From the NCBI GenBank assembly GCA_904387055.1, contig CAJFKV010000003.1, positions 17,499-81,498 on the forward strand: a DNA stretch of 64,000 bases, in the 5' to 3' direction. Under the pieces are notes generated by a model. The model did not search any database and had not been told where the DNA came from. It was given only the letters and a program-made list of their open reading frames with translations. Source of the stretch: Candidatus Heteroruminococcus faecigallinarum (GTDB lineage Bacteria > Bacillota > Clostridia > Oscillospirales > Ruminococcaceae). A program made the translations under genes and the position numbers. Positions 1,060 to 62,106 of this stretch are shown one piece after another; positions within the stretch are counted from its first letter, which is position 1; each line of letters opens with the position of its first letter.

Positions 1060-2772
1060 CTACATACTATCGGGGCAGGAGACCTGGAGCATGCCCAGGG
1101 CGTTGGCCAGGACCGTCTTGACGGCCAGGCACAGGTTGAGGCGGGCCTGCATCAGGTGCTCGTCGTCACACCGGCAGGAGCAGGTGGTGTAGAACTTGTG
1201 GAACAGGTTGGCCAGGTCCACCAGATACTTGGTGATGGCGGCGGGGTCGTAGCGGCGGGCGCTGTCGATGATGGTGGCAGGCAGCTGCCCCAGCTGGCGG
1301 ATCAGGTTCCGCTCGTCGCCGGTGGTGAGAAGATCCAGCTCCTCCCTGGTGCAGGGACGGACGGCGACCCCGTCCTGTTCCATCCGCCGCAGGATGGAGC
1401 AGATCCGGGCATGGGCGTACTGGACGTAGTAGACCGGGTTTTGGGAGGTCTGCTGGGCAGCCAGGCCCAGGTCGAAGTCCAGGGTGGAATTGGGCTCCCG
1501 CAGGTTGAAGAAGAAGCGGGCGGCGTCCACCGGCACTTCCTCAAACAGATCGGCCAGGGAGATGGCCTTGCCGGTGCGCTTGCTCATCTTGACGGGGGTG
1601 CCGTCCTTCATCAGCCGCACCAGCTGCATCAGGACGATGTCCAGCTTGCTGCCGTCCAGGCCGATGGCGTCCATGGCGCCCTTCAGCCGGGCCACATGGC
1701 CGTGATGGTCGGCGCCCCAGACGTTGATGCACCGCTCAAAGCCCCGCACGGCAAATTTGTTGTAGTGGTAGGCGATGTCGGCGGCAAAATAGGTGGGAAC
1801 CCCGTTGGCCCGCACCAGAACCTCGTCCTTCTCGTCTCCAAACTGGGTGGCCTTGTACCAGACGGCCCCCTCCTTCTCGTAGGTGAGCCCCCGGTCGGCC
1901 AGGGTTTTCAGCACCTGGTTGATGGCGTCGGGATGGAGGGTGCTTTCCAAGAACCAGGTGTCGTAATGGATCCGGTACTTGGCCAGATCCGCCTTCATCT
2001 GGGCCAGATTCCGGGGAAGGGCAAAGTCCACCAGAGCCTGGCGGCGCTCCTCGGCCGGGGCGTTTACATACCGGTCCCCATATTCCTTGGAGAAGTTCTT
2101 CGCGTGGACCCGGATGTCATCCCCGTGATAGCCGTCCTCCGGGAAGGGGACCGCCTCCTCGCCCTGATAGAGCTGCAGGTAACGGGCCTCCAGGGAGAGG
2201 CCGAACTTGGCAATCTGGTTGCCGGCGTCGTTGACATAGAACTCCCGGGAAACCTGGTAGCCGGCCCAGTCCAGCACGGCGGCCAGGCAGTCGCCGATGG
2301 CGCCGCCCCGGGCGTTTCCCATGTGCATGGGGCCGGTGGGGTTGGCGGAGACAAATTCCACGTTGATCTTCTCGCCATGGCCGTAATCGGTGCGGCCGTA
2401 CTGGGCCCCCAGGGCAAGAATGCTCTCCACAATGGTGGAGAACCATCCGGCCCCTACAAAAAAGTTGATGAAGCCGGGGCCGGCCACCTCCACCCGCTGG
2501 AAGGGGGTCCCCTCCAGGTTCATCTGCTCACACAGGATCTGGGCAATCTGCCGGGGGGCCATGGAAAAGGCCTTGGCGCCGGCCATGGCGGCGTTGGTGG
2601 CAAAGTCGCCCTTGGTGGGATCGGCGGGGATCTCCACCACAAAGGCGGGCAGGGGGGCGTCCTTGAGGGCCCCGGCGGCAATGGCCCGGTGGAAGCCCTC
2701 CTCCACCAGCTGCCGCGCCTGGGAGTAGGCCTGGTTGATGCTGTCCTTAACAATGGTGCTCATAGAATCCAT
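1060..2772 (-). CDS. argS: arginine--tRNA ligase
   Basis: 570-aa ORF with the class I HMGN(ARGG) motif and KMSKRTGK. Alternative start at 2763 (MSTIV), which has better RBS spacing. Confidence 0.95.
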   Translation of the reverse strand: MDSMSTIVKDSINQAYSQARQLVEEGFHRAIAAGALKDAPLPAFVVEIPADPTKGDFATNAAMAGAKAFSMAPRQIAQILCEQMNLEGTPFQRVEVAGPGFINFFVGAGWFSTIVESILALGAQYGRTDYGHGEKINVEFVSANPTGPMHMGNARGGAIGDCLAAVLDWAGYQVSREFYVNDAGNQIAKFGLSLEARYLQLYQGEEAVPFPEDGYHGDDIRVHAKNFSKEYGDRYVNAPAEERRQALVDFALPRNLAQMKADLAKYRIHYDTWFLESTLHPDAINQVLKTLADRGLTYEKEGAVWYKATQFGDEKDEVLVRANGVPTYFAADIAYHYNKFAVRGFERCINVWGADHHGHVARLKGAMDAIGLDGSKLDIVLMQLVRLMKDGTPVKMSKRTGKAISLADLFEEVPVDAARFFFNLREPNSTLDFDLGLAAQQTSQNPVYYVQYAHARICSILRRMEQDGVAVRPCTREELDLLTTGDERNLIRQLGQLPATIIDSARRYDPAAITKYLVDLANLFHKFYTTCSCRCDDEHLMQARLNLCLAVKTVLANALGMLQVSCPDSM

Positions 2773-2794
2773 TCCTCTGCTTTCCTCTCTCGTT

Positions 2795-3238
2795 TTACAC
2801 CGGTTCCGGTGTCGTTCCGCATTCGGTGACCTGAATGCGGATTTCGTTTTCGCTGGTAAGGGTGGTATTGATATCCAGGGAATATTTGAAGGCCAGATCG
2901 CCCCCCTGGTCGGTGAGGGAGGAGACGATGGAGTCCCCGCTCACGCCGATGATGAGGGAATGGCCTCCTACCTGATAGTTGCACTGGTGGCGGACCCCAT
3001 TTTCCACGATCAGATGGGACTGGACCGACCCGGACCGGAGCATGGTGACCCGTTTGTCCTCCTCCACCTTCAGCACCGTGTGGGAGCCTTCAAAGCCGGT
3101 GACCTCCGACTCGTCGTACGCGATGTAATAGTGGCCGCCCCGGCGGTAGTAGCTGCCGGTGGTGAGCAGCTCCACCTGATCCTTTTCCCCATCCACCAGC
3201 TGGGTCCCCTTGATGGAGATTAACACTTCCTTTTTCAT
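2795..3238 (-). CDS. DUF1934 (YwiB-like) beta-barrel protein
   Basis: 147-aa ORF MKKEVLISIKGTQ...YYIAYDESE...; RBS AGGTGA. It sits in the classic position directly upstream of argS in Firmicutes. Confidence 0.8.
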   Translation of the reverse strand: MKKEVLISIKGTQLVDGEKDQVELLTTGSYYRRGGHYYIAYDESEVTGFEGSHTVLKVEEDKRVTMLRSGSVQSHLIVENGVRHQCNYQVGGHSLIIGVSGDSIVSSLTDQGGDLAFKYSLDINTTLTSENEIRIQVTECGTTPEPV

Positions 3239-3255
3239 TCCATCACCTGCGTCGT

Positions 3256-4071
3256 TTAGATCCGGTCGATGTCCACTTGGCTTACCTGTTGGGAGATGGC
3301 TTCCCCCAAGAAGAACTCCGCCGTCTTGATAAAGCCGTCCACCTGGTCGCTGACATAGAAATCGAAGCTCCCTCCGCTGCTCTGGCTGTTCAGCAGGTTG
3401 TGGGAGGCCAGATACCCCCGCACATACCGGGCCACCTCGGAGCCGGAATCCACCAAGGTCACCTGGTAGTCCAGATAGGCGTTGATGACGTCGTAGAGGA
3501 GGGGATAGTGGGTGCAGCCCAGGACCAGGGTATCGATGCCCGCTTCCTTGAGGGGGGCCAGGTACATGGCCACCGCCTCCCTGGCGATGGGATTGTCCGG
3601 CTGGACCAGCCCTGCCTCCACAATGGGAACCAGCAGGGGGCAGGCGTTTCCGAAGACCTGTGCCTCCGGCCGGATGCCCCGGATGATCCGCCCGAATTCC
3701 CCGCTGCGGATGGTGGCCTGGGTGCCGATGACCCCGATCTTGCCGCCGGAGGAGAGCACGCAGGCAGCCTGGGCGGCCGGGACCAGCACCCCGGTATAGG
3801 GGACGTTGACCTGAAAACCGGGGGTGACGTTCAGCATGGAGCTGACCGTCCCGCAGGCCACCACGATCATCTTCACGTCAAAGGTTTGCAGGAAGCGGAT
3901 GTCCTGGTCCGCGTACTTGATGATCGTTTCCCGGCTGCGGGTGCCGTAGGGAATCCGGCCGGTGTCACCAAAATAGACGATATCCTCCCCCGGCAGAAGG
4001 CGGCGCAGAGCCTTCACCGCGGTGAGGCCTCCCAGGCCGGAGTCAAAAACGCCGATTGGCCGATTATCCAT
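3256..4071 (-). CDS. murI: glutamate racemase
   Basis: Internal start MDNRPIGVFDSGLGGLT...VVACGTVSS...LGCTHYPLL within track ORF 3256..4551. The upstream 160 codons are Arg/Gly junk overlapping ddl. Confidence 0.92.
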   Translation of the reverse strand: MDNRPIGVFDSGLGGLTAVKALRRLLPGEDIVYFGDTGRIPYGTRSRETIIKYADQDIRFLQTFDVKMIVVACGTVSSMLNVTPGFQVNVPYTGVLVPAAQAACVLSSGGKIGVIGTQATIRSGEFGRIIRGIRPEAQVFGNACPLLVPIVEAGLVQPDNPIAREAVAMYLAPLKEAGIDTLVLGCTHYPLLYDVINAYLDYQVTLVDSGSEVARYVRGYLASHNLLNSQSSGGSFDFYVSDQVDGFIKTAEFFLGEAISQQVSQVDIDRI

Positions 4072-4145
4072 GGAACAACCCTTTCTCCGCCGGCAGAATT
4101 TCCACCCGCAGCCCCTTCCCGGCGGCAGAAGGCCTGCGAACGGGA

Positions 4146-5216
4146 TTACCCTTCCAGGGCCAGGTCGATCAGCTTCTCCACCAGGCCGGGATAGTCGTAT
4201 CCCGAGGCCAAAAACAGCTTGGGGTACATGCTGATGTTGGTAAAGCCGGGCAGGGTGTTGATCTCGTTGAGAACCACGCCCCGGCCGTCCTCCGCCCCGT
4301 CGCAGACGAAGAAGTCCACCCGGGCAAGGCCCCGGCAGCCCAGCGCCCGGTAGGCCTTTACCGCCAGTGCCCGCACCCGCTCGGCGGCCGCCTGGGGAAT
4401 CCGGGCGGGGATGTACAGCTGGGCCGAGTCGTTGAGGTATTTGCCCTCGTAGTCGTAGAAGCCGGAGGCGGCGATCTCGCCCACCAGGTCGGAGGCGACC
4501 GGCTGGCCGTTGCCCATGACGGCGCACTCCACCTCCTGACCCTTGATGCACTCCTCGATGAGGACCCGGCTGTCAAAGCGGAGAGCGTCCCGCACCGCCT
4601 CCTCCAGCTGGGCGGGCTCGGTCACCTTGTGAACCCCCACCGACGACCCGGCGCAGACCGGCTTGACGAACATGGGATACCCCAGGGCGCTTGCCGCCTG
4701 CTCCTCCACCAGATCGATCCGGTCCAGGTCCTGGGCGGTTACCTCCATCCACCGGGCATTGGGAATGCCGGCCGCGGTAAAGAGGGTTTTGGCGATGGCC
4801 TTGTCCATGCAGTTGGCACTGGCGGTTACGCCGCAGCCCACATAGGGGATGCCGGCCATCTCCAGCAGGCCCTGGATGGTGCCGTCCTCCCCGTTGCGGC
4901 CGTGAAGGACGGGAAACACCACATCCAGCCGCACCGGACGGACCCCGCTCTCTTCCAGCAGGAGCACCCCGTGGGTGCCGGCATCGGGGGAAATGAGGGC
5001 GGGGGTCAGCCGGTCGCTGTGCTCCCAGCTGCCGTCCTCCACCCCTTCCACCGGCCCGTCGTAGCAGAACCAGCGGCCGTCCTTGGTGATGCCCAGCATC
5101 ATCAGGTCGAACCGGTCCTGGGGGACGCTGCGGAGGATGGAGGCCGCGCTCCACTGGGAGACCTCGTGCTCGCTGGAAGCGCCGCCGAAGACAACGGCCA
5201 GTTTGGATCTATTCAA
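4146..5216 (-). CDS. ddl: D-alanine--D-alanine ligase
   Basis: 356 aa. KLAVVFGGASSEHEVS, ATP-grasp blocks and the C-terminal EINTLPGFT motif. TTG start. Confidence 0.93.
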   Translation of the reverse strand: MNRSKLAVVFGGASSEHEVSQWSAASILRSVPQDRFDLMMLGITKDGRWFCYDGPVEGVEDGSWEHSDRLTPALISPDAGTHGVLLLEESGVRPVRLDVVFPVLHGRNGEDGTIQGLLEMAGIPYVGCGVTASANCMDKAIAKTLFTAAGIPNARWMEVTAQDLDRIDLVEEQAASALGYPMFVKPVCAGSSVGVHKVTEPAQLEEAVRDALRFDSRVLIEECIKGQEVECAVMGNGQPVASDLVGEIAASGFYDYEGKYLNDSAQLYIPARIPQAAAERVRALAVKAYRALGCRGLARVDFFVCDGAEDGRGVVLNEINTLPGFTNISMYPKLFLASGYDYPGLVEKLIDLALEG

Positions 5217-5421
5217 AGTTGGTCACACTCCTTATAATCGGGCCGCCGGCGGCGGCCGGCCAGGGGAACAGGCATTCCCCCTCCCGTAACGGGATATCCT
5301 GCGCCGGGAACGACAAAGAGACAGCTGGGCGCAATACCATTATATTTTATCATAAAGGGCGGATATGCGCAACAAGGCCGCCCCCCGCTTCCCCTGGAAA
5401 AAGGCGGTTTTTCCAGGGTTT

Positions 5422-5459
5422 TTACCGAAAACGGCCCGCGCCTTTCCGGGCGCGGGCCG
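5422..5459 (-). terminator. intrinsic terminator after upp
   Basis: GC hairpin with arms 5432-5442 and 5449-5459, followed by TTTT on the minus strand. Confidence 0.6.
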
Positions 5460-5476
5460 CTGGATGGGGGTAGGGG

Positions 5477-6106
5477 TCAATAGGTGCCGTAGATCCGGTC
5501 GCCGGCATCCCCCAGGCCGGGCAGGATGTACTTGTTCTCGTTGAGGCAGTCGTCCAGCGCGGCACAGTAGACCTGCACGTCCGGATGGGCCTTGGTGAGG
5601 GCTTCCAGCCCTTCGGGGGCGGCGATGATGCAGAGGAAGCGGATGTTCTTGCCCCCCTTGGCCTTGATCTGGCGGATGGCGTCCACCGCCGAGCCGCCGG
5701 TGGCCAGCATGGGATCCAGGACGAAGATGTCCCGCTCCTCAATATCGGCGGGGAGCTTGCAGTAGTACTCCACCGGCTGGTGGGTCTGGGGATCCCGGTA
5801 GAGGCCGATGTGGCCCACCCGGGCGCTGGGCACCAGGGTGAGGATTCCCTCCACCATCCCCATACCGGCCCGCAGAATGGGGACGATGGCCAGCTTCCGG
5901 CCGGCCAGCATCTTGCAGCGGGCAGGGGCCATGGGGGTTTCGACGGTGACCTCTTCCAGGGGAAGGTCCCGGGTGGCGTCGTAGCACATCAGGGTGGCCA
6001 GCTCGTTGATCAGCTCCCGGAACTCCTTGGAACCGGTGTTTTTGTCCCGCAGCACAGCCAGCTTGTGCTGCACCAAGGGATGATCCATGATGATGGGTTT
6101 GGGCAT
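5477..6106 (-). CDS. upp: uracil phosphoribosyltransferase
   Basis: 209 aa. [16 protein letters not shown]..., PRPP loop [12 protein letters not shown], and a C-terminal [10 protein letters not shown] motif. RBS AAGGAG. Confidence 0.95.
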
Positions 6107-6148
6107 ACGGAAAGACTCCTTTCTATTGCCGGCGCGGGAGAGGGGAGA

Positions 6149-6604
6149 CTACTCGGTGAGGGTCCCGTCCTCAATGGCGTCGATCATCTCCAAATACCGC
6201 AGATGGCGGCCGCCCTCAAAGGAGGCGTCCACAAAGGCATCCACAATGTCGTTGGCCAGACCGGGACCGACAATCTCCCAGCCCAGGCAGAGGGCGTTGC
6301 AGTTGCTCACCTGGCGGGCCAGGCGGGCGGTGCGGGTATCGGAACAGGCGGCGGGGTGGATTCCCTTCATCTTGCAGGCGGCGGACAGCACGCCGATGCC
6401 GGTGCCGCAGAAGAGGATCGCCAGGTCACACCGGCCGTCCTTCACGGCGTTGCCGCCGGCAAGGGCAGCCTTGGGGTAGTCCATCCGCTCCTCGGGGGTG
6501 TGGGTACCCAGGTCCTCGTAGGGGATTCCCCGCTCCTCCAGGTGGGCGCGGACGGCTTCCTTCAGGGCAAAAGCACCGTGATGGCAGGCGAGAGCAATTT
6601 TCAT
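6149..6604 (-). CDS. RpiB/LacA/LacB-family sugar-phosphate isomerase paralog with substituted active-site residues
   Basis: MKIALACHHGAF...FCGTGIG...ARQVSNCNALCLG...EGGRH. Start at 6604 (AAGGAG 9 nt upstream), not the track start 6613. Confidence 0.8.
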   Translation of the reverse strand: MKIALACHHGAFALKEAVRAHLEERGIPYEDLGTHTPEERMDYPKAALAGGNAVKDGRCDLAILFCGTGIGVLSAACKMKGIHPAACSDTRTARLARQVSNCNALCLGWEIVGPGLANDIVDAFVDASFEGGRHLRYLEMIDAIEDGTLTE

Positions 6605-6679
6605 CGGTAACATCTCCTTTTTGCATTGGTTGGCAGTGATAGAACCGGCTGCTGCCGGGGAAAGATGAACAACAGGGGG

Positions 6680-7135
6680 TTACTCGGTCAATTCTCCATC
6701 CTGGATGGCCATGATCTGGGCGACCCGGCGGGCGTGGCGTCCCCCCTCAAAGGAGGTGTCCAGAAAGGCGTCCACCAGCTCGTTGGCAAGGCCGGGTCCC
6801 AGCACCCGCCCGCCCAGGCAGAGGACGTTGGCGTCGTTGTGGAGGCGGGTATACCGGGCGGAATAGGTATCGGAGCAGCAGGCGGCCCGGATGCCCTTGA
6901 TCTTGTTGGCAGCCATGGACACGCCGATGCCGGTGCCGCAGCACAGGATGGCCATGGTGCAGCGGCCGTCGTTGATGGCGTTGCAGGCGTACAGGGAGGC
7001 GTAGGGGTAGTCCCGTTTTTCCTCGGCGGAATAGATGCCGAAGTCCTCGTAGGGGATCTCCCGCTCCTCCAGGTGGGCACGGATGGACTCCTTGAGCTGG
7101 AAGCCGCCGTGATCGCAGGAAAGGGCAATTTTCAT
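6680..7135 (-). CDS. rpiB: ribose-5-phosphate isomerase B
   Basis: MKIALSCDHGGF...CCGTGIG...RLHNDANVLCLG...EGGRH. Canonical RpiB motifs; RBS AAGGAG. Confidence 0.88.
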   Translation of the reverse strand: MKIALSCDHGGFQLKESIRAHLEEREIPYEDFGIYSAEEKRDYPYASLYACNAINDGRCTMAILCCGTGIGVSMAANKIKGIRAACCSDTYSARYTRLHNDANVLCLGGRVLGPGLANELVDAFLDTSFEGGRHARRVAQIMAIQDGELTE

Positions 7136-7158
7136 AGGGTATCAGGCTCCTTTTTTTG

Positions 7159-7890
7159 TTAACGGCCGGTGGCCGGATTGGTTGCTTGCTGGGCGGCCTG
7201 GCGGGCAAGAAGCTCCCGCTCGGCCTGGGGCAGCCGCAGGTAGACGGGGGCCAGCTCCCCGGCGGTGCACAGGCCCCCTGCCTCGGCCAGGGCCGCGGCG
7301 GCCATGGCCACCGACGAGGCCCGCTGATGGAGAAGATGGGCAGGGGCCACCCCCACATGGGGGCAGCCCTCCCCCAGGAAGGAACGGCAGAGGCGGGCCC
7401 CGTCTCCCACCAGGAGGGTGGGCTCCCGGCGGCGGGCCAGCTCTTCTCCCAACTGGGCAAGGGAGATGGCCTGGTCCTCCCACAGGCGGGTGAGCCGGCC
7501 TTCCCTGCAGGAGAAGAGGGCGGTGTACACCTGCTGGCAGCGGGCGTCCATCACCGGGCAGATGAGGCCGTCGTGGGCAAGAAGGTTGCAGGCAAGGCCC
7601 TCCAGGGTGGACACCGGGGCGCAGGGCTTGCCGGCGGCAAAGGCGAGGCCCTTGGCGGCGGCGATGCCGATCCGCAGGCCGGTGAAGGACCCCGGTCCCA
7701 CCGAAACGGCAAAACAGTCCGGCTGGGCAGGAGTCGTCTCGGTGCTCCGCAGCAGCTGGTCCACCAGGGGGAGAAGGGTCTGGCTGTGGGTAAGCCTGGT
7801 ATTGAGGAACTGCTCTCCCAACAGGTCCCCGTCCTTCCACAGGGCGGCCGAGGCGGCCCGGGAGGAGGAATCAACAGCCAAGATGATCAA
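7159..7890 (-). CDS. tsaB: tRNA t6A biosynthesis protein TsaB (YeaZ)
   Basis: TTG start giving (M)IILAVDSSSRAASAAL...VSVGPGSFTGLRIGIAAAKGLA. Overlaps the tsaE stop by 20 nt. The track ORF 7159..8325 is over-extended through tsaE. Confidence 0.85.
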   Translation of the reverse strand: MIILAVDSSSRAASAALWKDGDLLGEQFLNTRLTHSQTLLPLVDQLLRSTETTPAQPDCFAVSVGPGSFTGLRIGIAAAKGLAFAAGKPCAPVSTLEGLACNLLAHDGLICPVMDARCQQVYTALFSCREGRLTRLWEDQAISLAQLGEELARRREPTLLVGDGARLCRSFLGEGCPHVGVAPAHLLHQRASSVAMAAAALAEAGGLCTAGELAPVYLRLPQAERELLARQAAQQATNPATGR

Positions 7891-8392
7891 AGCGCTCGTC
7901 TCCTTCAATGGTAATGCGCCGGGTATCCTCCCCGGCCGGGTCAAAGGTGATGACGGTTGCCCCCTGGGGGAGGGCGCCGTCCATATTCTCGCTCCATTCC
8001 ACCGCCAGGATGGCGTCGCCCTCCAGATAGTCGAAAAAGCCGGTGGAGTACAGATCGTCAAACCCCCGGATCCGGAACATGTCAAAATGGCACAGGGAGA
8101 TCCCGTTGCCCCGGTACTCGTTGACCAGGGCGAAGGTGGGGCTGGAAACCACGTCCCCCAGGCCGAGGCCCTGGGCCAGGCCGGCGGTGAAGGTGGTCTT
8201 GCCGGCACCCATCCCCCCCCGATAGGCCAGCAGGTCCCCGGGGCGGAGGAGGGGGGCGATTTCCCGGGCCAGCTGCCGGGTTTCCTCGGGGGAATGGGTG
8301 ATCCGTGTGATCTGGGACAAAACATACACCGCCTTTTTCAAAAAGCCCGGGCAGAGAACCGGCCCTGCCGGGGGCCGCATGTCGGCCGGCAA
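7871..8392 (-). CDS. tsaE: tRNA t6A biosynthesis ATPase TsaE (YjeE)
   Basis: P-loop GGMGAGKTTF plus SPTFALVNEY and HFDMFRI. The true start is probably internal (GTG at 8329). Confidence 0.85.
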   Translation of the reverse strand: MPADMRPPAGPVLCPGFLKKAVYVLSQITRITHSPEETRQLAREIAPLLRPGDLLAYRGGMGAGKTTFTAGLAQGLGLGDVVSSPTFALVNEYRGNGISLCHFDMFRIRGFDDLYSTGFFDYLEGDAILAVEWSENMDGALPQGATVITFDPAGEDTRRITIEGDERFDHLGC

Positions 8393-20672: not shown

Positions 20673-21938
20673 ATGGATGTTCATCAGTATGCCAACTACC
20701 TGCAGATCCTCCGCAAGGAACTGATTCCCGCCATGGGCTGCACCGAGCCCATCGCCGTTGCCTTCGCGGCGGCCAAGGCCCGCCAGGTGCTGGGTGTCAT
20801 GCCCGAGCGGATGGTGGCCCGGTGCAGCGGCAACATCATCAAAAACGTCAAGGGGGTCAGCGTGCCCAATGCCGGCGGCCAGAAGGGAATTGAAGCGGCG
20901 GCGGTTTTGGGAGCGCTGGCGGGGAAGGCGGATCTGGAGCTGGAGGTCATCAGCCAGGCGACCCCTCAGGAGGCGGAAGAAACCCGCCGGCTGGTGGCCG
21001 CGGGGCTTTGCCGGTGCCAGCTGGCAGAAAAGGTGGAAAATCTGTATATCTGCATCGAGGCGGCGGCCGGGGAGGACACGGCGGTTGTGGAGGTGAAGAC
21101 CAAGCACAACCACATCTCCCGCATTGAGAAGAATGGGCAGGTGCTGCTGTCCGCCGACGATATCCCCGTAGAGGACGGCGGCGACAAGAGCCAGCTGAAC
21201 CTGAAGGACATCCTGGAGTTTGCCAACGCGGTGAAGCTGGAGGATGTGGAAGAGGTGATCGGCCGGCAGATCCAGTACAACTGCGCCATCTCCCGGGAAG
21301 GACTGGACCGGGAATGGGGCGCTTCGGTGGGCCGGACGGTGCTGGAAACGGGCGGCGAAGACCTGCGGACCCAGGCGATTGCCCGGGCGGCGGCGGGATC
21401 GGATGCCCGGATGAACGGCTGTGCCCTGCCGGTGGTGATCAACGCCGGCAGCGGGAACCAGGGGATTACCTGCACCCTGCCGGTGGTGACCTATGCGGAG
21501 GCGATGGGGGTGGGGAAGGAGAAGCTCTACCGGGCGATGGTCCTCACCAACCTGATTGCCCTCCATCAGAAGCGGTATATCGGCAACCTGTCCGCCTACT
21601 GCGGGGCGGTTTCGGCGGGGACCGCTGCCGCCTGCGGAGTGGCCTACCTCCATGGGGAGGGGTACGAGGTGATCGGCAAGACCATCGTCAACTCCCTGGG
21701 CAACACAGGGGGGATCGTCTGTGACGGGGCCAAGGCCTCCTGTGCCGCCAAAATTGCCTCGGCGGTAAACGGCGGGCTGCTGGGGTACGAGATGGCCAAG
21801 CGGGGCCGGGTCTTCCCCTTTGGAGAAGGGCTGGTGGAAGGCGATTACGAGCAGACCATCCGCAACTTCGGCCAGCTGGGACGCAGCGGCATGAAGGAAA
21901 CCGACGTGGAGATCCTCCACATGATGATCGGCGACTGA
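20673..21938 (+). CDS. UPF0597 / L-cysteine desulfidase family (serine dehydratase alpha-like) protein
   Basis: RBS AAGGAG. MDVHQYANYLQILRKELIPAMGCTEPIAVAFAAA..., INAGSGNQGIT, GIVCDGAKASCAAK. Confidence 0.8.
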   Translation: MDVHQYANYLQILRKELIPAMGCTEPIAVAFAAAKARQVLGVMPERMVARCSGNIIKNVKGVSVPNAGGQKGIEAAAVLGALAGKADLELEVISQATPQEAEETRRLVAAGLCRCQLAEKVENLYICIEAAAGEDTAVVEVKTKHNHISRIEKNGQVLLSADDIPVEDGGDKSQLNLKDILEFANAVKLEDVEEVIGRQIQYNCAISREGLDREWGASVGRTVLETGGEDLRTQAIARAAAGSDARMNGCALPVVINAGSGNQGITCTLPVVTYAEAMGVGKEKLYRAMVLTNLIALHQKRYIGNLSAYCGAVSAGTAAACGVAYLHGEGYEVIGKTIVNSLGNTGGIVCDGAKASCAAKIASAVNGGLLGYEMAKRGRVFPFGEGLVEGDYEQTIRNFGQLGRSGMKETDVEILHMMIGD

Positions 21939-21958
21939 CGGGAAGAAGGCATCCCCCC

Positions 21959-21996
21959 AACAGGCCCGCTCCCTGCGAGGGAAGCGGGCCTGTTTT
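21959..21996. terminator. bidirectional terminator
   Basis: AACAGGCCCGCT and AGCGGGCCTGTT arms followed by TT, between convergent genes. Confidence 0.65.
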
Positions 21997-22005
21997 GATG
22001 GAGGC

Positions 22006-23799
<1,794 letters not shown>

Positions 23800-23901
23800 G
23801 GGGCGCTCCTTTCGGAAAATGGGGGATTTTCCGCCGTTTTGGGCGGATGAGGGGCACGGCGGCCAACGGCCGCTTTTTTTCGCCCTCCTGCGGATGAATG
23901 G

Positions 23902-23930
23902 TTGAAATATCGGCGGTAAGGCCGTATAAT
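23902..23930 (+). promoter_or_regulatory. sigma-A promoter for corA
   Basis: TTGAAA, 17-nt spacer, TATAAT. Confidence 0.6.
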
Positions 23931-24009
23931 AGTACTGGTGCGTTGGAATCTTCTGCGGCAGGCGGGCGGTTCCAGACGGGCGAACCACTGCCGAAGGGGG
24001 AAGAGTTCG

Positions 24010-24942
24010 GTGATTTCTTTCTACAAAACGATTGACAATACGGTTCAGCCGGTGGACGAGCTGGTGGATGGCTGCTGGGTGTCGGTGGTATCCCCCACCG
24101 CCAGCGACCTGGGCTTTTTGGCGGACCAGCTGGGAGTAGACCCCGGGTTTGTCCAGGCGGCAATGGACGAGGAGGAAAGCTCCCGGATTGAGAGCGACGA
24201 GGGACAGACCCTGGTCATTGTGGACGTTCCCTCCGCCGACCCCCAGCCCCAGGACGAACGTACCATAGTATATTCCACCCTGCCTATGAGCATTATCATT
24301 CTGGAGAATTATGTAATCACCGTCTGCCTGCGGCCCCTTCAGGTAATTGAGGACATTGCGGAGGGGCGGGTGAGAGGGGTGGCCACCCACCTGAAGACCC
24401 GTTTCCTCTTTACCCTCCTGCTGCGGATTGCCAACCGCTTCCTGATCTACCTGAAGCAGATCGACAAATTGACCTCCTACACCGAGATGCAGCTCCACAA
24501 GGCCATGAAAAACGCCGAGCTGATCCAGCTGCTGGGGCTGCAAAAGTCCCTGGTGTTCTTCTCCACCTCCCTGAAGTCCAATGAGATGACCATGGAGAAG
24601 ATCCTGCGGGGGCGGATCCTCAAGCTCTACGAGGAGGACGAGGAGCTGCTGGAGGACGTGCTCATCGAGATCAAGCAGGCCATTGAGATGTGTAGCATTT
24701 ACACGGGGATTCTGTCCAGCACCATGGATGCCTTCGGATCCATCATCTCCAACAATCTGAACATTGTGATGAAGGTGTTGACCTCCCTGACGGTGGTGAT
24801 GGCCATCCCCACCATGGTGTCCGGCTTTTATGGGATGAATGTTTCGGGCCTTCCGTTCCCCTACTTCTGGTTCCCCACCCTGGTGACCCTGATTCTGGTG
24901 GCGGTGGCGACCATCATTCTGGTAAAGAAAGGGATGTTCTGA
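24010..24942 (+). CDS. corA: CorA-family magnesium/cobalt transporter
   Basis: GTG start after AAGGGGGA. C-terminal GFYGMNV motif and two TM helices. Confidence 0.88.
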   Translation: MISFYKTIDNTVQPVDELVDGCWVSVVSPTASDLGFLADQLGVDPGFVQAAMDEEESSRIESDEGQTLVIVDVPSADPQPQDERTIVYSTLPMSIIILENYVITVCLRPLQVIEDIAEGRVRGVATHLKTRFLFTLLLRIANRFLIYLKQIDKLTSYTEMQLHKAMKNAELIQLLGLQKSLVFFSTSLKSNEMTMEKILRGRILKLYEEDEELLEDVLIEIKQAIEMCSIYTGILSSTMDAFGSIISNNLNIVMKVLTSLTVVMAIPTMVSGFYGMNVSGLPFPYFWFPTLVTLILVAVATIILVKKGMF

Positions 24943-24994: not shown

Positions 24995-25030
24995 ATTAGC
25001 TTTGACTAACTTGTGAGGCGGGGCATACTG
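24995..25030 (+). promoter_or_regulatory. ZIP-gene promoter overlapped by an ATTAG-N6-CTAAC palindrome
   Basis: ATTAGCTTTGACTAAC at 24995-25010. TTGACT (25002-25007), 16/17-nt spacer, CATACT. Confidence 0.55.
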
Positions 25031-25103
25031 TCTGTAAGAAGCGCTCTTCCGGCCCTTGGGCGGGAGGAGGGGCGGCTGCCCGGCCTCGAAAGGAGGAAGA
25101 TGG

Positions 25104-25895
25104 ATGAACGGTATTGCATGGGCGGCGGTAGGGACCGGCTTTACCTTTGGAATGACCACCCTGGGCGCGGCGCTGGTGTTCTTTTTCCGCAGGGGGGTGA
25201 GCCCCCAGCTGCAGCGGGTGCTGCAGGGATTTGCGGCGGGGGTGATGATCGCCGCCTCGGTGTGGAGCCTGCTGATCCCGGCCATCGAGGAGGCGGAGGC
25301 CGCGGGCATTCCCGGGTGGATGCCGGCGGCGGGAGGCTTCGTGCTGGGGATTGCCTTCCTGATGGTGCTGGACCTGTGCCTGCCCCATCTGCATCCCGGC
25401 TCCCGGGAACCGGAGGGCCGTCAAGCCGGCTGGAAGCGGACCACCATGCTGGTGCTGGCAGTCACCCTCCACAACATTCCCGAAGGAATGGCGGTGGGCC
25501 TTTCCTTCGCCCTGGCTGCCCAGCACACGGGGGAAGCGGCCCTGGGAGCGTCGGCCCTGGCGCTGGCCCTGGGCATCGGGATTCAGAACTTTCCCGAGGG
25601 AGCGGCCATCTCCCTGCCCCTGCGGCAGGAGGGCTTGTCCCGGCTGCGCAGCTTTGCCTATGGAAGCCTGTCGGGAATTGTGGAGCCGATCTTCGGCATT
25701 TTGGTGGTGCTGGCGGCGGGGACGATCCAGCCGCTGATGCCCTGGCTGCTCAGCTTTGCGGCGGGGGCCATGCTCTATGTGGTGGTGGAGGAGCTGATCC
25801 CCGAGGCCCATCTGGGGGAACATTCCCACCTGGGAACCTTGGGGGTCATGGGCGGCTTCCTGGTGATGATGGTGCTGGATGTGGCCTTGGGATAG
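25104..25895 (+). CDS. ZIP-family (ZupT-like) divalent metal transporter
   Basis: RBS AGGAGG. MNGIAWAAVGTGF...LAVTLHNIPEGMAVG...GIGIQNFPEGAAIS... Confidence 0.88.
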   Translation: MNGIAWAAVGTGFTFGMTTLGAALVFFFRRGVSPQLQRVLQGFAAGVMIAASVWSLLIPAIEEAEAAGIPGWMPAAGGFVLGIAFLMVLDLCLPHLHPGSREPEGRQAGWKRTTMLVLAVTLHNIPEGMAVGLSFALAAQHTGEAALGASALALALGIGIQNFPEGAAISLPLRQEGLSRLRSFAYGSLSGIVEPIFGILVVLAAGTIQPLMPWLLSFAAGAMLYVVVEELIPEAHLGEHSHLGTLGVMGGFLVMMVLDVALG

Positions 25896-26002
25896 GAAGA
25901 AAGCGAGGACTCGCTGTCGAAAGAAGGCAGGATTTTTCTTTCTTCGGCTGATGAAGCTTGACTTTTCCCGGTCAAATGGAGTACACTGGAGCTGGTAGAG
26001 AA

Positions 26003-26026
26003 GGTTAGCAATCGCTAACCTTTTTT
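26003..26026 (+). terminator. hairpin plus T6; also a GTTAG-N6-CTAAC palindrome copy
   Basis: GGTTAGC-AATC-GCTAACC followed by TTTTTT. Confidence 0.55.
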
Positions 26027-26038
26027 ACGTGGAAGAAA

Positions 26039-26056
26039 TGTTAGCTATGACTAACA
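26039..26056. promoter_or_regulatory. perfect palindrome TGTTAG-CTATGA-CTAACA upstream of the P-type ATPase operon
   Basis: Read directly from the sequence. 49 nt upstream of the ATG at 26105. Overlaps a weak ATGACT-17-TATTGA promoter-like element. Confidence 0.5.
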
Positions 26057-26104: not shown

Positions 26105-26344
26105 ATGAATTGTTTTCACTGCATCAAAAATGAAAAGTTTCTCTGCTTTGTAGGTGGGATTGCAGCTGCTACCATCGGGGTAAAGGCCATCAGGAGCCCA
26201 CAGGCCCGCAAACTGTGTGTTACCGGCATGGCCAAAGGGATGAAGCTGCAAAAGGATGCCCAGGCCATGTTCCAGAACATGAAAGAGGATGCCCAGGACC
26301 TGTGTTATGACGCGAAGATGGAAGCTGAGGGGAAGGACGCATAA
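26105..26344 (+). CDS. 79-aa Cys-containing membrane-associated protein (hypothetical ATPase partner)
   Basis: RBS AAAGGA. MNCFHCIKNEKFLCFVGGIAAATIGV... then an amphipathic Lys/Gln/Ala-rich helix. Its TAA overlaps the ATPase ATG (TAATG). Confidence 0.6.
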   Translation: MNCFHCIKNEKFLCFVGGIAAATIGVKAIRSPQARKLCVTGMAKGMKLQKDAQAMFQNMKEDAQDLCYDAKMEAEGKDA

Positions 26345-28506
26345 TGCACAGCACCATTGTCTATGATCGACCGGGCCGACTGCGCCTTCGGTGTGGCCAA
26401 TATGCCTTTGACCAGCGGCAGGCGCCGGGGATCGAGGCCCTTCTGATGGGCGAGATGGGGGTGGAGCAGGTGACCGCCTGCTCCACCAACGGCAGCATTC
26501 TCGTCCTTTATCGCGGTACGGCCAGAGCGCGGATTCTGGAGCGGGTGGCCGCCATCCGCCGGGACACCATCCCTGCAGCCCCTCAGGAAACGGTCCAGGG
26601 GCTGCAGGAGATCGACAATTGGTTTTGGAACCGGTTTGCTTGGATGGTGGTCCGACGTGCCCTGTTCCGGTTTATTCTTCCTTCGCCGATTCGAATGGCG
26701 GTGACCCTGATAAAGGCGCTGGGATATGGGAGGGCTGGCCTGCACAGCTTGTTCCGTGGGAGGATGGACGTGTCGGTTTTGGATGCGGCCTCCATTGGGG
26801 CGGCCATCGCCCAGGGTTCCTATGCCACCGCCAGCTCGGTGATGTTCTTGCTGTCCCTTTCCGGACTGCTGGAGGAGTATACCCGCCGCCGCACGGGGAC
26901 AGCACTCCGGCAAAGCCTGACAATCCATGTGGATCAGGTGTGGCGGGTGGAAGAAAACGGCCGTGAGGAATCGATTCCCATGGCTTCCCTGCAGGTGGGG
27001 GAGAAGATCCGCATTCGCTGTGGATCGCTGATCCCCGTGGACGGCAAAGTAACCGACGGCGACGGCATGGTGAACGAAGCAGCCATGACCGGAGAACCGC
27101 TGGCTGTTCATAAGCGGCCCGGATCGGTGGTTTATGCGGGCACCACTATGGAAGAGGGGACGCTCACGGTGGAGGTGACCGCTCTTTCCGGGGAGAGCCG
27201 GATCAGTCAGATCGTGGAGATGATTGAAGAGTCGGAAAATTTGAAGGCCGGCGTACAGAGCCGGGCCGAACACCTCGCCGATGCCATTGTTCCGCTCAGC
27301 TTTTTGGGAGCTTTGGGGGTGGGAGCGGTAACCCGCAGCCTGACCAAGGCCCTCTCGGTCCTGATGGTGGACTACTCCTGCGCCATCAAGCTGTCCACCC
27401 CCATTGCGGTGATTTCCGCCATGCGGGAGGCGGCGACCCACAAGCTGATGGTGAAGGGAGGCAAGTATCTGGAAGCCTTTGCCCGGGCGGACACCATGAT
27501 TTTTGACAAGACCGGCACCTTGACTGCCGCCTGCCCTCAGGTGACCAAGGTGATTCCTCTGGCCGGCTATAGCCGGGACCAGGTACTGCGGATTGCCGCC
27601 TGTATCGAGGAGCATTTCCCCCACAGCATGGCCCGGGCGGTGGTCCAAAAGGCAGTGGAGGAGAATCTCCAGCATGAGGAACGTCATGCGCAGGTGGAAT
27701 ACGTGGTGGCCCATGGGGTGTCCACCCAGCTGTATGGCCAGCGTGCCCTCATCGGCAGCTACCATTTTATCTTTGAGGACGAACAGATCCCCTTTCCTCA
27801 GGAGGAGAAAGAGCTGGTGGAACGGGAGACGGCCGGGTCCTCCGCACTGTATCTGGCCATCGGCGGCCGGCTGGCGGGGGTAATCTGCATCAGCGACCCA
27901 CCCCGGCCGGAGGCTGCCCAAGCCATTCAAGAGCTGCGGGAACTGGGGATCCGCCAGGTGGTGATGCTGACCGGCGACCACGAAAACGCCGCCCGCAGCG
28001 CCTGCCGGCAGATGGGTATCTCCCAGTACCGTGCCCAGGTGCTTCCCGACGAAAAGGCCACGCTGGTGGCCCGGTACAAGGAGGGAAGCGCCGGGGTGAT
28101 TATGGTGGGGGACGGCATCAACGATTCCCCCGCCCTGGCTGCCGCCGATGTATCGGTGGCCATGAAGGATTCCTCCGACCTTGCCCGGGAAGTGGCGGAT
28201 ATTACCCTTCTTTCGGCAGACCTGAGGGATCTGGCGGTACTGCGCCGGCTGAGCAGAAGGATGCTGGAGCGGATCGACCGAAATTATCGGACCATCCTTT
28301 CATTCAATACGGCCCTGCTGCTGTTGGGACTGGGTGGCGTACTGCGGCCCACCACTACGGCCATGCTGCACAATCTGTCCACCATGGCCATTGCGGCGGG
28401 CAGCATGCGCCTGTATTTGAAGGAGGAAGACGGCAAACGACAGACGAAACAAACGGCCCTTCCGGCATCCCGCCAGGGATCGGGCCGGAGACGGGGAAGC
28501 CTGTAG
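26344..28506 (+). CDS. heavy-metal-type (P1B) P-type ATPase with a non-canonical TM4 motif
   Basis: 720 aa. TGEP, DKTGTLT and GDGINDSPALAAADV are present. TM4 reads VDYSCAIKLSTP rather than CPC. The last TM carries HNLST. The N-terminal HMA-like domain has no CxxC. Confidence 0.88.
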   Translation: MHSTIVYDRPGRLRLRCGQYAFDQRQAPGIEALLMGEMGVEQVTACSTNGSILVLYRGTARARILERVAAIRRDTIPAAPQETVQGLQEIDNWFWNRFAWMVVRRALFRFILPSPIRMAVTLIKALGYGRAGLHSLFRGRMDVSVLDAASIGAAIAQGSYATASSVMFLLSLSGLLEEYTRRRTGTALRQSLTIHVDQVWRVEENGREESIPMASLQVGEKIRIRCGSLIPVDGKVTDGDGMVNEAAMTGEPLAVHKRPGSVVYAGTTMEEGTLTVEVTALSGESRISQIVEMIEESENLKAGVQSRAEHLADAIVPLSFLGALGVGAVTRSLTKALSVLMVDYSCAIKLSTPIAVISAMREAATHKLMVKGGKYLEAFARADTMIFDKTGTLTAACPQVTKVIPLAGYSRDQVLRIAACIEEHFPHSMARAVVQKAVEENLQHEERHAQVEYVVAHGVSTQLYGQRALIGSYHFIFEDEQIPFPQEEKELVERETAGSSALYLAIGGRLAGVICISDPPRPEAAQAIQELRELGIRQVVMLTGDHENAARSACRQMGISQYRAQVLPDEKATLVARYKEGSAGVIMVGDGINDSPALAAADVSVAMKDSSDLAREVADITLLSADLRDLAVLRRLSRRMLERIDRNYRTILSFNTALLLLGLGGVLRPTTTAMLHNLSTMAIAAGSMRLYLKEEDGKRQTKQTALPASRQGSGRRRGSL

Positions 28507-28539
28507 GGCCCTGCCTTTTGCCGGGGAAAGGAGCAGGTC

Positions 28540-28935
28540 ATGGTTACCTGGATCATTCTGGCAGCGGTGATCCTCATCGCTGTGTACACGGTTGGTTCCT
28601 ATCGGAAAAAGCTGACCTCCGGCTGCTGCGGCGCCCAGGGGGACGGAATGGAAAAGAAAGTAAGGGTGGAGGACCGAAACAAGAACCATTATCCCTATCA
28701 GGCGGTAGTAACCATTGATGGGATGGTTTGCGGCAGTTGCAGCCGGCGGGTGGAGAATGCCCTCAATCGGCTGGATGGGGTATGGGCCCAGGTGGATCTG
28801 GGGGCGGGTACCGCGCTGGTGCGGATGAAATACCCCGTGGAGGATGCCGTCCTCAAGGAAGCAGTAAACAGGAGCGGGTACACGGCCCTTCGGATTACCC
28901 ATCCGACGGGGCCGGTTTCCCAGCCGCTGCTGTAA
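28540..28935 (+). CDS. membrane-anchored heavy-metal-associated (HMA) domain protein
   Basis: N-terminal TM helix followed by SGCCG (this resembles FeoB-associated Cys-rich membrane peptides), then a canonical HMA domain VVTIDGMVCGSCSRRVENAL. Confidence 0.8.
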   Translation: MVTWIILAAVILIAVYTVGSYRKKLTSGCCGAQGDGMEKKVRVEDRNKNHYPYQAVVTIDGMVCGSCSRRVENALNRLDGVWAQVDLGAGTALVRMKYPVEDAVLKEAVNRSGYTALRITHPTGPVSQPLL

Positions 28936-28980
28936 AAAACCGCCCGCCGGAATCGTTCCGATTCCGGCGGGCGGTTTTTT
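28934..28980. terminator. bidirectional intrinsic terminator
   Basis: A-tract, ACCGCCCGCCGGAATCG and CGATTCCGGCGGGCGGT arms, then T-tract. Confidence 0.8.
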
Positions 28981-28995
28981 GCGATACGGGAAAGG

Positions 28996-29508
28996 CTACA
29001 GGGTGAGGGTGGGGGCGGCATAGGTCCGGGCGGCCAGCTCGCTGTCCACCATATACAGGCCCTTGGGATCGCTTCCAAAGAGCTCCATCTTGGTAATCAG
29101 GTCGTGGGAGTTGGTTTCCTCTTCCCCCTGCTCCTTCACAAACCAATCCAGGAACTGGGTGGTGCGGAAGTCCTTCGCCTCCTGGGCGGCGGCGTAGATG
29201 GTGTGGATGAGCCCCGTGACATACTCCTCGTGGGCCAGGCCGGCCTGGAGCGGGTCCATCAGGGTCGAGAAGGCGGTATCCGGCTTGGGGATGGCCTCCA
29301 GCGTGACGGGGGCGTTGTTGTTCTGCAGGTACTGGTAGAAGAGCATGGCGTGATCCCGCTCCTCCTGGGCCTGGACCTTGTACCAGTTGGCAAAGCCATG
29401 TAGGCCTTTTGCTTCGTAGAAGTTGGAAAAATCCAGATACAGATAGGCGGAGTAGAATTCCTTGTTGATCTGGTCATTGAGCAGGGTTGCCACCGTCTTG
29501 TTCAGCAT
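28996..29508 (-). CDS. ferritin (non-haem, Ftn type)
   Basis: MLNKTVATLLNDQINKEFYSAYLYL...QAQEERDHAMLFYQYL... ferroxidase-centre residues. Confidence 0.92.
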   Translation of the reverse strand: MLNKTVATLLNDQINKEFYSAYLYLDFSNFYEAKGLHGFANWYKVQAQEERDHAMLFYQYLQNNNAPVTLEAIPKPDTAFSTLMDPLQAGLAHEEYVTGLIHTIYAAAQEAKDFRTTQFLDWFVKEQGEEETNSHDLITKMELFGSDPKGLYMVDSELAARTYAAPTLTL

Positions 29509-62053: not shown

Positions 62054-62106
62054 GGTTAGTGTAAACTAACCAATGAAATAATACCATTTTACTCTTTTTT
62101 TGACAA
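62054..62106 (-). promoter_or_regulatory. peroxiredoxin promoter with a GGTTAG-N6-CTAACC palindrome at the transcription start region
   Basis: On the minus strand: TTGTCA (62101-62106), 17-nt spacer, TATTAT (62078-62083). The palindrome lies at 62054-62071, 6 nt downstream of the -10. Confidence 0.55.

Follow-up and report, generated by a model that had tools for sequence, protein, structure and literature searches.

A probable ferrosome (fez) gene cluster in Candidatus Heteroruminococcus faecigallinarum and a candidate operator of an iron-type regulon

Ferrosome genes and the locus under study

Ferrosomes are membrane-bound iron-storage organelles, and FezB, a P1B-6 ATPase, is essential for their formation in Desulfovibrio magneticus, Shewanella putrefaciens and Rhodopseudomonas palustris (Grant et al. 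preprint). The ferrosome mineral is ferrous phosphate, and FezB has been proposed as the importer. In Clostridioides difficile, ferrosome formation requires both the membrane protein FezA and the transporter FezB; both are under Fur repression and play a part in colonisation (Pi et al. 2023, as cited in later reviews). Here we describe a locus that resembles these systems, located in a 64,000-nucleotide (nt) stretch of Candidatus Heteroruminococcus faecigallinarum DNA (GenBank assembly GCA_904387055.1, contig CAJFKV010000003.1, positions 17,499 to 81,498; hereafter the window). Three adjacent genes encode a small membrane protein, a P1B-type ATPase and a membrane-tethered protein with a heavy-metal-associated (HMA) domain.

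The FezB group has been defined by the motifs D[Y/F]SCA and HNxxT, by an N-terminal R-rich motif (RxR/RxRxR) and by the lack of a classical metal-binding domain; the R-rich motif is common to FezB and CtpC (Grant et al. preprint). The pairing of P1B-6 ATPases with DUF6110 proteins, the relation of the latter to PacL/DUF1490 and the pairing with FezA have likewise been published, and Gxxx[A/S] is accepted by Grant et al. as a variant of GxxxG. In the PacL system, the EA repeats of PacL bind the N-terminal metal-binding domain of the ATPase, and PacL is needed for both the stability and the clustering of the ATPase.

We consider it likely that the locus in the window is a fez (ferrosome) cluster, comprising an Fe(II)-loading FezB pump, its FezA partner and an optional transmembrane (TM)-HMA protein, and that it forms an iron-repressed operon. 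The three genes are listed below with their window coordinates.

26105-26344, forward strand: fezA-like gene, encoding a 79-amino-acid (aa) protein of the DUF6110/FezA family (open reading frame (ORF) list, profile search, AlphaFold2)
26344-28506, forward strand: fezB-like gene, encoding a 720-aa P1B-6 ATPase (ORF list, HMMER, AlphaFold2)
28540-28935, forward strand: TM-HMA gene, encoding a 131-aa membrane-tethered HMA protein, an optional fez accessory

Assignment of the pump to the P1B-6/FezB family

The P-type ATPase hallmarks TGEP, DKTGTLT and GDGINDSP are all present in the pump, which scores above the cutoff of the NCBIfam heavy-metal P-type ATPase subfamily model (506 vs 346 bits). It falls under the cutoffs of the Cu model TIGR01511 (337 vs 397), of CopA (298 vs 1316) and of ZntA (265-298 vs >1000). 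At the TM4 metal site the sequence reads VDYSCAIKLSTP (residues 342-353, with VDYSCAIK at 342-349 and DYSCA at 343-347). HMMER alignment to Legionella CopA (3rfu) sets 'vdYSCAiklstP' column for column with 'iaCPCAlglatP', and the CPC site is therefore truly replaced: Y-S-C stands in register for C-P-C, and the second Cys alone is retained. No CPC, SPC or CPH motif is present. HNLST (residues 676-680) lies within the last helix predicted by AlphaFold2 (669-686), and EEHFPHS (422-428) aligns with the SEHPL region of CopA with its His kept. A preliminary description of the window, made from its letters, had already pointed to YSCA in place of CPC, to HNLST in the last TM helix and to EEHFPHS at the HP region, as well as to the three ORFs, the P-type hallmarks and the TAATG coupling of the first two genes; all of these are present.

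For comparison we used 80 loci, one per species and 865 kb in total, with pump relatives 42-66% identical to the window pump. Strict D[YF]SCA occurs in 68 of the 77 full-length relatives in this set, and HNxxT in all 77. In alignments of 37-40 relatives, D343, S345, C346, H676, N677 and T680 are invariant, as is R14 near the N-terminus. The best genome match of the pump is 66% identical, and a 99% match was found in a metagenome only.

The pump N-terminus contains GRLRLRCG (residues 11-18; RLRLR at 12-16), and C17 and C46 are the only Cys up to residue 75, with no CxxC. AlphaFold2 models the first 70 residues as a beta-beta-alpha-beta-beta-alpha domain (predicted local distance difference test score, pLDDT, ~80) of ferredoxin-like fold, placing the RLRLR motif on a beta-hairpin, and Pfam HMA_2 (PF19991) is found at the N-terminus of several pump relatives. 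The HMA-like domain of about 70 aa without CxxC that had been noted from the sequence is confirmed by this fold and by the relatives. The modelled membrane region comprises eight helices (84-111, 114-137, 143-156, 160-191, 306-330, 333-365, 628-663 and 669-686), the first two of which are amphipathic and charged and may escape TM predictors. A reduced six-helix topology has been reported for the FezB subgroup, and the supplement of Grant et al. heads its motif column 'TM4/6'. Searches of the PDB by sequence and by fold returned no P1B-6 structure; the best matches were CopA and ZntA, at 26-29% identity overall and, by Foldseek, at TM-scores of 0.6-0.7 with 27-29% identity.

All three published FezB signatures are found in the window pump (DYSCAIK, HNLST and YDRPGRLRLRCG, with RLRLR), and the catalogued FezB homologue of Flavonifractor plautii (DYSCAIK/HNAST/YDQPGRLRVRFG) is closely alike. 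By its sequence the window pump is a P1B-6/FezB-family ATPase. This family membership was established here, and the ferrosome function of FezA and FezB is taken from the literature. In public annotation, homologues of the pump are named 'Cd(2+)-exporting ATPase'.

A FezA-like protein encoded upstream of the pump

In the 79-aa protein, CFHC (residues 3-6) is followed by a single hydrophobic stretch (12-29) and an acidic amphipathic stretch at ~44-60 (hydrophobic moment ~0.4), in agreement with the preliminary description, which had listed CFHC, a hydrophobic helix and an amphipathic tail. Within the hydrophobic segment FLCFVGGIAAATIGVKAI, G18xxxA22 and A21xxxG25 are found; across the FezA-like family alignment G18 is invariant and G25 is present in >=90% of members. 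The motif CFVGGIAAATIGVK of the window protein corresponds to CFAGGVAAALVGAK of an F. plautii protein of 79 aa; in Supplementary Table 4 of Grant et al. the latter falls into GxxxG subgroup 2-2, as does the protein encoded next to C. difficile fezB.

A hidden Markov model built from the upstream ORFs identified, in 70 of the 72 loci with enough upstream sequence, a fezA-like homologue that lies just 5' of the pump and on its strand. Pfam DUF6110 is matched (E <= 0.01) by 21 of 23 sampled positional homologues, the best at 5e-38. This gene linkage, observed directly in the related loci, bears out the earlier suggestion of a small accessory subunit dedicated to the pump. The profile search shows a very large family, whose NCBI name is merely 'DUF6110 family protein'. 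The window protein is 77% identical to its homologue in L001, the closest genome relative, and 68% identical to that in L090 (Intestinimonas-like); it is a divergent member of the FezA/DUF6110 family. Its N-terminal CxxC is retained in L001 and L088 (CFDC and CFNC) and missing in L090; this motif, part of the earlier description, does not characterise the family.

The third gene encodes a TM-CC-HMA protein

The 131-aa protein combines an N-terminal TM segment, a GCCG motif and an HMA domain with GMVCGSC (Pfam HMA, 3.6e-10); a basic YRKK follows the TM helix, and there is no RxR motif. The architecture given in the preliminary description is confirmed, and the likeness to FeoB-associated Cys-rich peptides that it proposed is real yet sub-threshold (FeoB_associated, PF12669, 17.8 bits with a cutoff of 27). 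The closest family consists of 120-130-aa proteins named 'heavy-metal-associated' or 'copper chaperone' (50-61% identity).

A tblastn search with the 131-aa protein gave a match in only 4 of the 80 species loci, 3 of these being TM-HMA genes, and most related pumps have no HMA gene downstream. A 64% relative (L088) lacks an HMA gene and carries a DtxR-family gene in divergent orientation. A metagenome contig with 99% identity keeps the entire ZIP-fezA-fezB-HMA-ferritin order of the window. An Intestinimonas-like contig (L090/L091) encodes fezA-fezB-HMA in a different neighbourhood, with the HMA gene overlapping the pump stop by 4 nt and with identities to the window proteins of 65% (pump), 68% (FezA) and 53% (HMA). 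In L073, L075 and L039 (3/80 species), a TM-CC-HMA gene lies 5' of fezA, and the L073 copy overlaps the fezA start by 4 nt. The L087 fez cluster also holds a TM-HMA homologue. Grant et al. list in their subgroup 3-5 'copper chaperone' proteins of 120-131 aa without an R-rich motif in fez clusters of Firmicutes and Actinobacteria, and the window protein, compared by description only, fits this subgroup in its size, HMA domain, lack of an R-rich motif and fez position. From these patterns of occurrence, the TM-HMA protein is best described as an optional, lineage-restricted fez accessory. The membrane-tethered chaperone that had been ascribed to the pump is therefore linked with it in some lineages and is not general, being missing beside most related pumps; of the two small genes expected to co-occur with SCA-type pumps, the 79-aa partner does so in 70 of 72 loci, as already published, and the TM-HMA protein has a match in only 4 of 80.

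The 131-aa protein was also considered as an orthologue of FezC, and this was rejected on its domain order: in FezC the R-rich HMA domain is N-terminal and two TM helices come after it, the opposite order to the single N-terminal TM helix, CC and C-terminal CxxC HMA domain, without RxR, of the window protein.

One locus, L075, contains a compact iron gene array (1629-8073) in the order feoB, FeoB-associated Cys-rich peptide (4151-4357), atypical Fur-family gene (4450-4947), TM-CC-HMA (4920-5285), fezA and fezB. In this locus the Cys-rich peptide and the TM-HMA protein start nearly alike (MGTAV...), which suggests that the TM-HMA protein arose via fusion of a FeoB-associated-type anchor to an HMA domain. 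L081-L085, which include Clostridium sp. M62/1, carry stand-alone TM-HMA homologues (coordinates 6001-6381 or 6001-6372) among unrelated neighbours, with the annotation 'copper chaperone'.

Operon structure

The remaining features around the three genes are as follows.

24995-25010, no strand: operator-like palindrome ATTAGCTTTGACTAAC, with 1 mismatch to GTTAG-N6-CTAAC (pattern match)
25056-25895, forward strand: ZIP/ZupT-family metal importer gene (Pfam Zip 5e-23, NCBIfam ZupT 2e-35)
25995-26028, forward strand: 15-bp hairpin and T-run, probable ZIP terminator (RNA fold -21.1 kcal/mol, z = -7.2)
26040-26055, no strand: operator-like palindrome GTTAGCTATGACTAAC (pattern match), overlapping a -35-like ATGACT
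28936-28980, no strand: bidirectional intrinsic terminator with A6, a ~20-bp G+C-rich stem and T6 (RNA fold -46.4 kcal/mol, z = -9.8)
28996-29508, reverse strand: non-haem ferritin gene, convergent (Pfam Ferritin 3e-37)

The fezA stop overlaps the ATG of the pump gene by 1 nt (TAATG; cataATGcac). The gap between the pump and HMA genes is 33 nt long, holds AAAGGAG before the ATG and contains no hairpin or terminator, and the -46.4 kcal/mol terminator, common to the convergent ferritin gene, lies directly 3' of the HMA stop. Because of the TAATG overlap, the 33-nt gap with a ribosome-binding site (RBS) and without a terminator, and the -46 kcal/mol terminator after the third gene, fezA, fezB and the HMA gene probably form a single transcription unit. 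The three-gene operon proposed in the preliminary description is upheld to this extent, as a probable unit deduced from the gaps and the terminator; the operon anatomy itself is observed here.

Between GTTAGCTATGACTAAC and the fezA ATG (26105), CATATT follows 15 nt after the palindrome, and then an RBS. The ZIP promoter is arranged like that of fezA, with ATTAGCTTTGACTAAC overlapping a -35-like TTGACT and followed after ~13 nt by CATACT. The hairpin at 25995-26028 has a perfect 15-bp stem with an A-tract and a T-tract and embeds another palindrome, GTTAGCAATCGCTAAC (26004-26019). It was not listed by a consensus terminator scan. This hairpin is probably the ZIP terminator, and it may also serve as an operator. 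A promoter-like match at 25958-25987 lies 5' of it and is a less likely start for the operon than a promoter overlapping the 26040 operator, because the strong hairpin and T-run follow it. A riboswitch or other RNA leader 5' of the operon was sought and rejected: Rfam at E <= 1 gave chance-level matches to unrelated families only.

A palindrome upstream of fezA and of iron genes

GTTAG-N6-CTAAC occurs in the window at four sites with at most one mismatch (24995-25010, 26004-26019, 26040-26055 and 62055-62070), compared with 0.41 expected, and no shuffle reached four. Across the 865 kb of the 80 species loci, 67 matches were observed vs 0.4 expected from shuffles. This operator enrichment, measured here, is confined to the 6-nt spacer, and no match was found for any of seven composition-matched control palindromes. 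The consensus is rGTTAG-wwwwar-CTAACy. Example sites are L081 5960-5975, L039 4034-4049, L073 4383/4417 and L025 1919/1997/2588; the palindrome also precedes fezA in L001. Genes at most 200 nt downstream of a palindrome were tallied and Pfam-checked, with the following result.

FezA: 10 sites
FeoA: 8 sites
ABC transporters: 7 sites
DUF3793: 7 sites
DUF2325: 6 sites
DtxR-family: 5 sites
Fur-family: 4 sites
flavodoxin: 3 sites
HMA proteins: 3 sites
peroxiredoxin: 2 sites
FeoB: 1 site

FeoAB and flavodoxin make up the classic signature of an iron-starvation regulon. Since the palindrome precedes feoA/B, flavodoxin, Fur- and DtxR-family genes and fezA, we propose that in Lachnospirales and Oscillospirales it may be the operator of an iron-type regulon. 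A literature search for GTTAG-N6-CTAAC as a literal pattern found no paper, and one by regulon keywords was likewise without result. The palindrome does not fit the Fur-type 7-1-7 box. Its half-sites resemble the inner half-sites of the IdeR/DtxR box, in which the spacing is 1 rather than 6.

In L088, a short DtxR-family repressor gene (4023-4400, reverse strand) is divergent from fezA, and the intergenic region shared by the two genes holds a one-mismatch copy of the palindrome, ATTAGCACTAGCTAAC. The presence of this copy makes a DtxR-family protein a candidate for the regulator that binds the palindrome. A DtxR-family repressor gene is also divergent from fezA in F. plautii (HMPREF0372_01422; Grant et al. 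supplement).

The palindrome lies 25-40 nt before the start codon in all five stand-alone TM-HMA loci (L081-L085). This suggests that the whole TM-HMA family may be iron-regulated rather than copper-related, and it draws a family of 'copper chaperones' into iron biology.

Proposed mechanism and alternatives

If the locus is a fez cluster, as we favour, the FezB-like pump would use ATP to move Fe(II) from the cytosol into a vesicle-like or invaginated compartment, in which an iron-phosphate mineral builds up; we infer Fe(II) as its substrate in this organism. The FezA-like protein would be the pump's obligatory partner in the membrane. If it works like the related PacL/DUF1490 proteins, its acidic E/D-A-rich cytoplasmic helix probably docks on the RLRLR hairpin of the N-terminal domain and stabilises or clusters the pump. 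The TM-HMA protein would be anchored with CC and CxxC in the cytosol, an orientation indicated by the YRKK after the TM helix (positive-inside), and would probably act as a chaperone that hands metal to the pump, which has no CxxC domain of its own, or would sense metal. The three genes would be transcribed together from a promoter overlapped by GTTAG-N6-CTAAC, and an iron-sensing repressor, putatively of the DtxR or Fur type, would free the operon on iron limitation, along with the ZIP importer. Repression of the operon by iron, and its induction when iron is scarce, is most likely because the operator also precedes feoAB, flavodoxin and Fur/DtxR-family genes across Clostridia; it would agree with the control of fezAB by Fur in C. 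difficile.

Several points weigh against this reading. We know of no experiment on this organism or on any member of the Oscillospiraceae, the evidence from Firmicutes being from C. difficile only, and we know of no biochemical measurement in which a P1B-6 ATPase was seen to transport Fe(II) directly. The CxxC of HMA domains is classically a Cu(I)/Zn/Cd site and not an Fe(II) site, and most TM-HMA homologues are not beside a pump but usually alone in unrelated contexts. Searched with tblastn using DtxR-family and Fur-family proteins from related loci, the 64-kb window yielded no regulator gene, and of the two palindromes proximal to fezA, one falls inside the terminator-like hairpin (26004-26019). 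The 79-aa protein is under the Pfam DUF6110 gathering cutoff (21.3 vs 26 bits; E = 2.8e-4), and its AlphaFold2 model, of two helices, has low confidence (pLDDT 55) and was used for secondary structure only. The likeness to the C. difficile Fez proteins rests on published motif strings. Reviews still call P1B-6 ATPases poorly understood, and another recent review lists them as Fe(II) pumps.

In the main rival reading, the pump and its small partner might instead form a PacL/CtpC-type 'effluxosome', in which the small protein scaffolds pump clusters in the plasma membrane and surplus metal (Fe2+, Zn2+ or another) leaves the cell through the pump for detoxification. DUF6110 has been reported to be related to DUF1490 (PacL), CtpC is 'P1B-6-like', and every P1B pump characterised so far carries metal away from the cytosol, export and organelle loading being one topology. 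In addition, 5 of 23 FezA-like proteins match DUF1490 weakly (best 7e-4); the window 79-aa protein gave no match to this profile. However, CtpC has CPC in TM4 where the window pump has SCA, the window small protein is without the His-rich C-terminal metal-binding motif, and the genetic tie to ferrosomes belongs to SCA-type pumps. An operator common to feoAB and flavodoxin also points to induction under iron limitation, the opposite of what a detoxification pump would need, and we regard the effluxosome as improbable. The same regulon partners make it very unlikely that the locus is a system for Cu or another thiophilic metal, with a CopZ-like chaperone and a CopA/ZntA-like exporter, as public annotations would have it. 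That idea draws on the names 'copper chaperone' and 'Cd(2+)-exporting ATPase' of the homologues, on matches of the HMA domain to CopZ-type models (1e-9 to 1e-11, under their cutoffs) and on CopA and ZntA as the nearest solved folds. However, the TM4 site has other residues in place of its first Cys and its Pro, no CPC, CPH or SPC being present in the pump, which also scores under the Cu (337 vs 397) and CopA/ZntA equivalog cutoffs, and no CsoR, CopY or CueR gene is nearby.

Within the fez reading, the place of the third gene is less certain. The 131-aa protein could be an independent passenger of the same iron-type regulon rather than a chaperone of the pump, the functional unit then being a two-gene fezAB, as C. 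difficile is described as using. The HMA matches near pumps in 4 of 80 loci (3 of them TM-HMA), and the 58-61% identical homologues that stand alone by unrelated genes with their own GTTAG-N6-CTAAC 25-40 nt upstream, agree with this. Against it, the linkage recurs independently, with the 4-nt overlaps downstream of the pump in L090/L091 and upstream onto fezA in L073; the gap between the pump and HMA genes of the window has no terminator; HMA proteins of like size are catalogued in fez clusters; and FezC of D. magneticus, which is ferrosome-associated, has an HMA domain. We think a mere passenger possible and rather doubtful. More tentatively, the TM-CC-HMA protein might be a metallochaperone, tethered to the membrane and either Fe(II)-handling or iron-regulated, that belongs to the iron-type regulon with or without adjoining fezAB, and GTTAG-N6-CTAAC might be the operator of an undescribed iron-responsive regulon of Oscillospirales and Lachnospirales, which would be controlled by an atypical Fur- or DtxR-family repressor and include feoAB, flavodoxin, fezAB, TM-HMA, DUF2325 and DUF3793. 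If true, this would extend the 'copper chaperone' HMA domains to iron trafficking into ferrosomes.

Neighbouring genes

Profile searches confirm that genes for CorA, ZIP and ferritin flank the locus, as the preliminary description had it. The ferritin gene provides an iron-storage context and is outside the operon. The ZIP gene is likewise a neighbour outside the operon and is probably co-regulated with it. The same operator type at the ZIP promoter hints that this importer could supply Fe(II). ZIP/ZupT-family genes recur by fez clusters in L062 (4087-4890), L028 (9498-10232), L073 (12552-13286) and L087 (253-1044), in L062 directly 3' of the pump.

Farther away, the 62055 palindrome of the window lies 92 nt 5' of the start of a 1-Cys peroxiredoxin gene (61292-61963, reverse strand), and a gene for a Cys-rich DUF1847 protein (62285-62911, reverse strand) is found just past the peroxiredoxin gene. 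The region 21845-24543 has 70% G+C, and several ORFs of >500 aa overlap there in different frames. The only one that looks like a real protein, judging from its sequence, is an 845-aa ORF (22006-24543, reverse strand). On inspection it has a membrane N-terminus followed by a domain like those of nucleotide-sugar dehydratases and epimerases.

Significance

The core of the locus is of an already described kind: the SCA pump, the GxxxG/DUF6110 partner and the occasional 120-131-aa HMA protein have all been published. The preliminary description had presented the pump as a novelty, and this does not hold because close characterised orthologues (FezB) exist, a circumstance that it had itself named as deciding against it. 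Its link between SCA and P1B-6 is confirmed in the literature, and the word 'uncharacterised' is outdated by FezB of ferrosomes. Of its proposal of an unknown, Fe2+/Co2+-like specificity, iron survives as the likely metal; the class is not an unknown one, P1B-6 being that of FezB. The P1B-6 class remains biochemically under-characterised, and the window locus adds no new handle there.

The locus nevertheless indicates that an uncultured high-GC lineage of gut Clostridia, related to Intestinimonas and Flavonifractor, carries the genetic blueprint for ferrosomes, which have so far been demonstrated in only four species and are important for gut colonisation in C. difficile. Public annotation is misleading where it gives 'Cd(2+)-exporting ATPase', 'copper chaperone' and 'DUF6110' for what would be FezB, a fez accessory and FezA, respectively. 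More is to be gained from the by-products than from the locus. The operator would tie fezAB, feoAB, flavodoxin and TM-HMA into one regulon across many gut Firmicutes, and it may be new, as may the membership of TM-HMA proteins in an iron regulon. Together with the recurrent yet optional linkage of TM-HMA to the pump, it offers testable starting points on the regulation and the supply of ferrosome loading.

Comparison with known systems

The window shares with CopZ/CopA and ZntA (P1B-1/P1B-2) the P1B fold and an HMA ferredoxin-like chaperone domain. It differs from them in having YSC rather than CPC in TM4, a membrane-tethered chaperone and an iron-type regulon. The FeoB-associated Cys-rich peptide (PF12669) is resembled by the first 31 residues of the 131-aa protein (TM, GCCG), but has no HMA domain.

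In Mycobacterium tuberculosis PacL1-CtpC, as in the window, a G-rich single-TM protein with an E/A-rich cytoplasmic helix is encoded directly 5' of the ATPase; CtpC and the window pump have in common the HN motif of TM6 and an R-rich N-terminal domain that lacks CxxC. By analogy, PacL1-CtpC is the best mechanistic model for the role of the small protein. The CPC of CtpC in TM4, its export of zinc, the His-rich C-terminal motif of PacL1 and the confinement of DUF1490 to Actinobacteria do not match the window.

D. magneticus FezABC and the six-gene fez operons of Shewanella putrefaciens and Rhodopseudomonas palustris combine, as does the window, a P1B-6 FezB, a GxxxG small protein, an HMA accessory and iron-homeostasis neighbours. 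The accessory is built differently, FezC of D. magneticus having an N-terminal R-rich HMA domain and then two TM helices and the window protein one TM helix, CC and a C-terminal CxxC HMA domain. Unlike these clusters, the window locus has no FezD-H, DUF4405 or DUF2202 genes.

Between the window and C. difficile fezAB, the small protein differs in length and type (131 aa, FLGGVLFGTVG in C. difficile; 79 aa, FVGGIAAATIG in the window), and the window adds a TM-HMA gene and a palindrome that is not a Fur box to what is described as a two-gene, Fur-regulated unit. Both have the gene for a small membrane protein followed by that for a P1B-6 ATPase. The pumps share, as far as published motif strings go, D[F/Y]SCA, HNxST and an R-rich N-terminus, and the C. 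difficile small protein is in GxxxG subgroup 2-2, as is the F. plautii protein of 79 aa, to which the window protein is closely similar. The two hosts are gut anaerobes of the Firmicutes, and both operons appear to be iron-responsive, that of the window as predicted from its operator.

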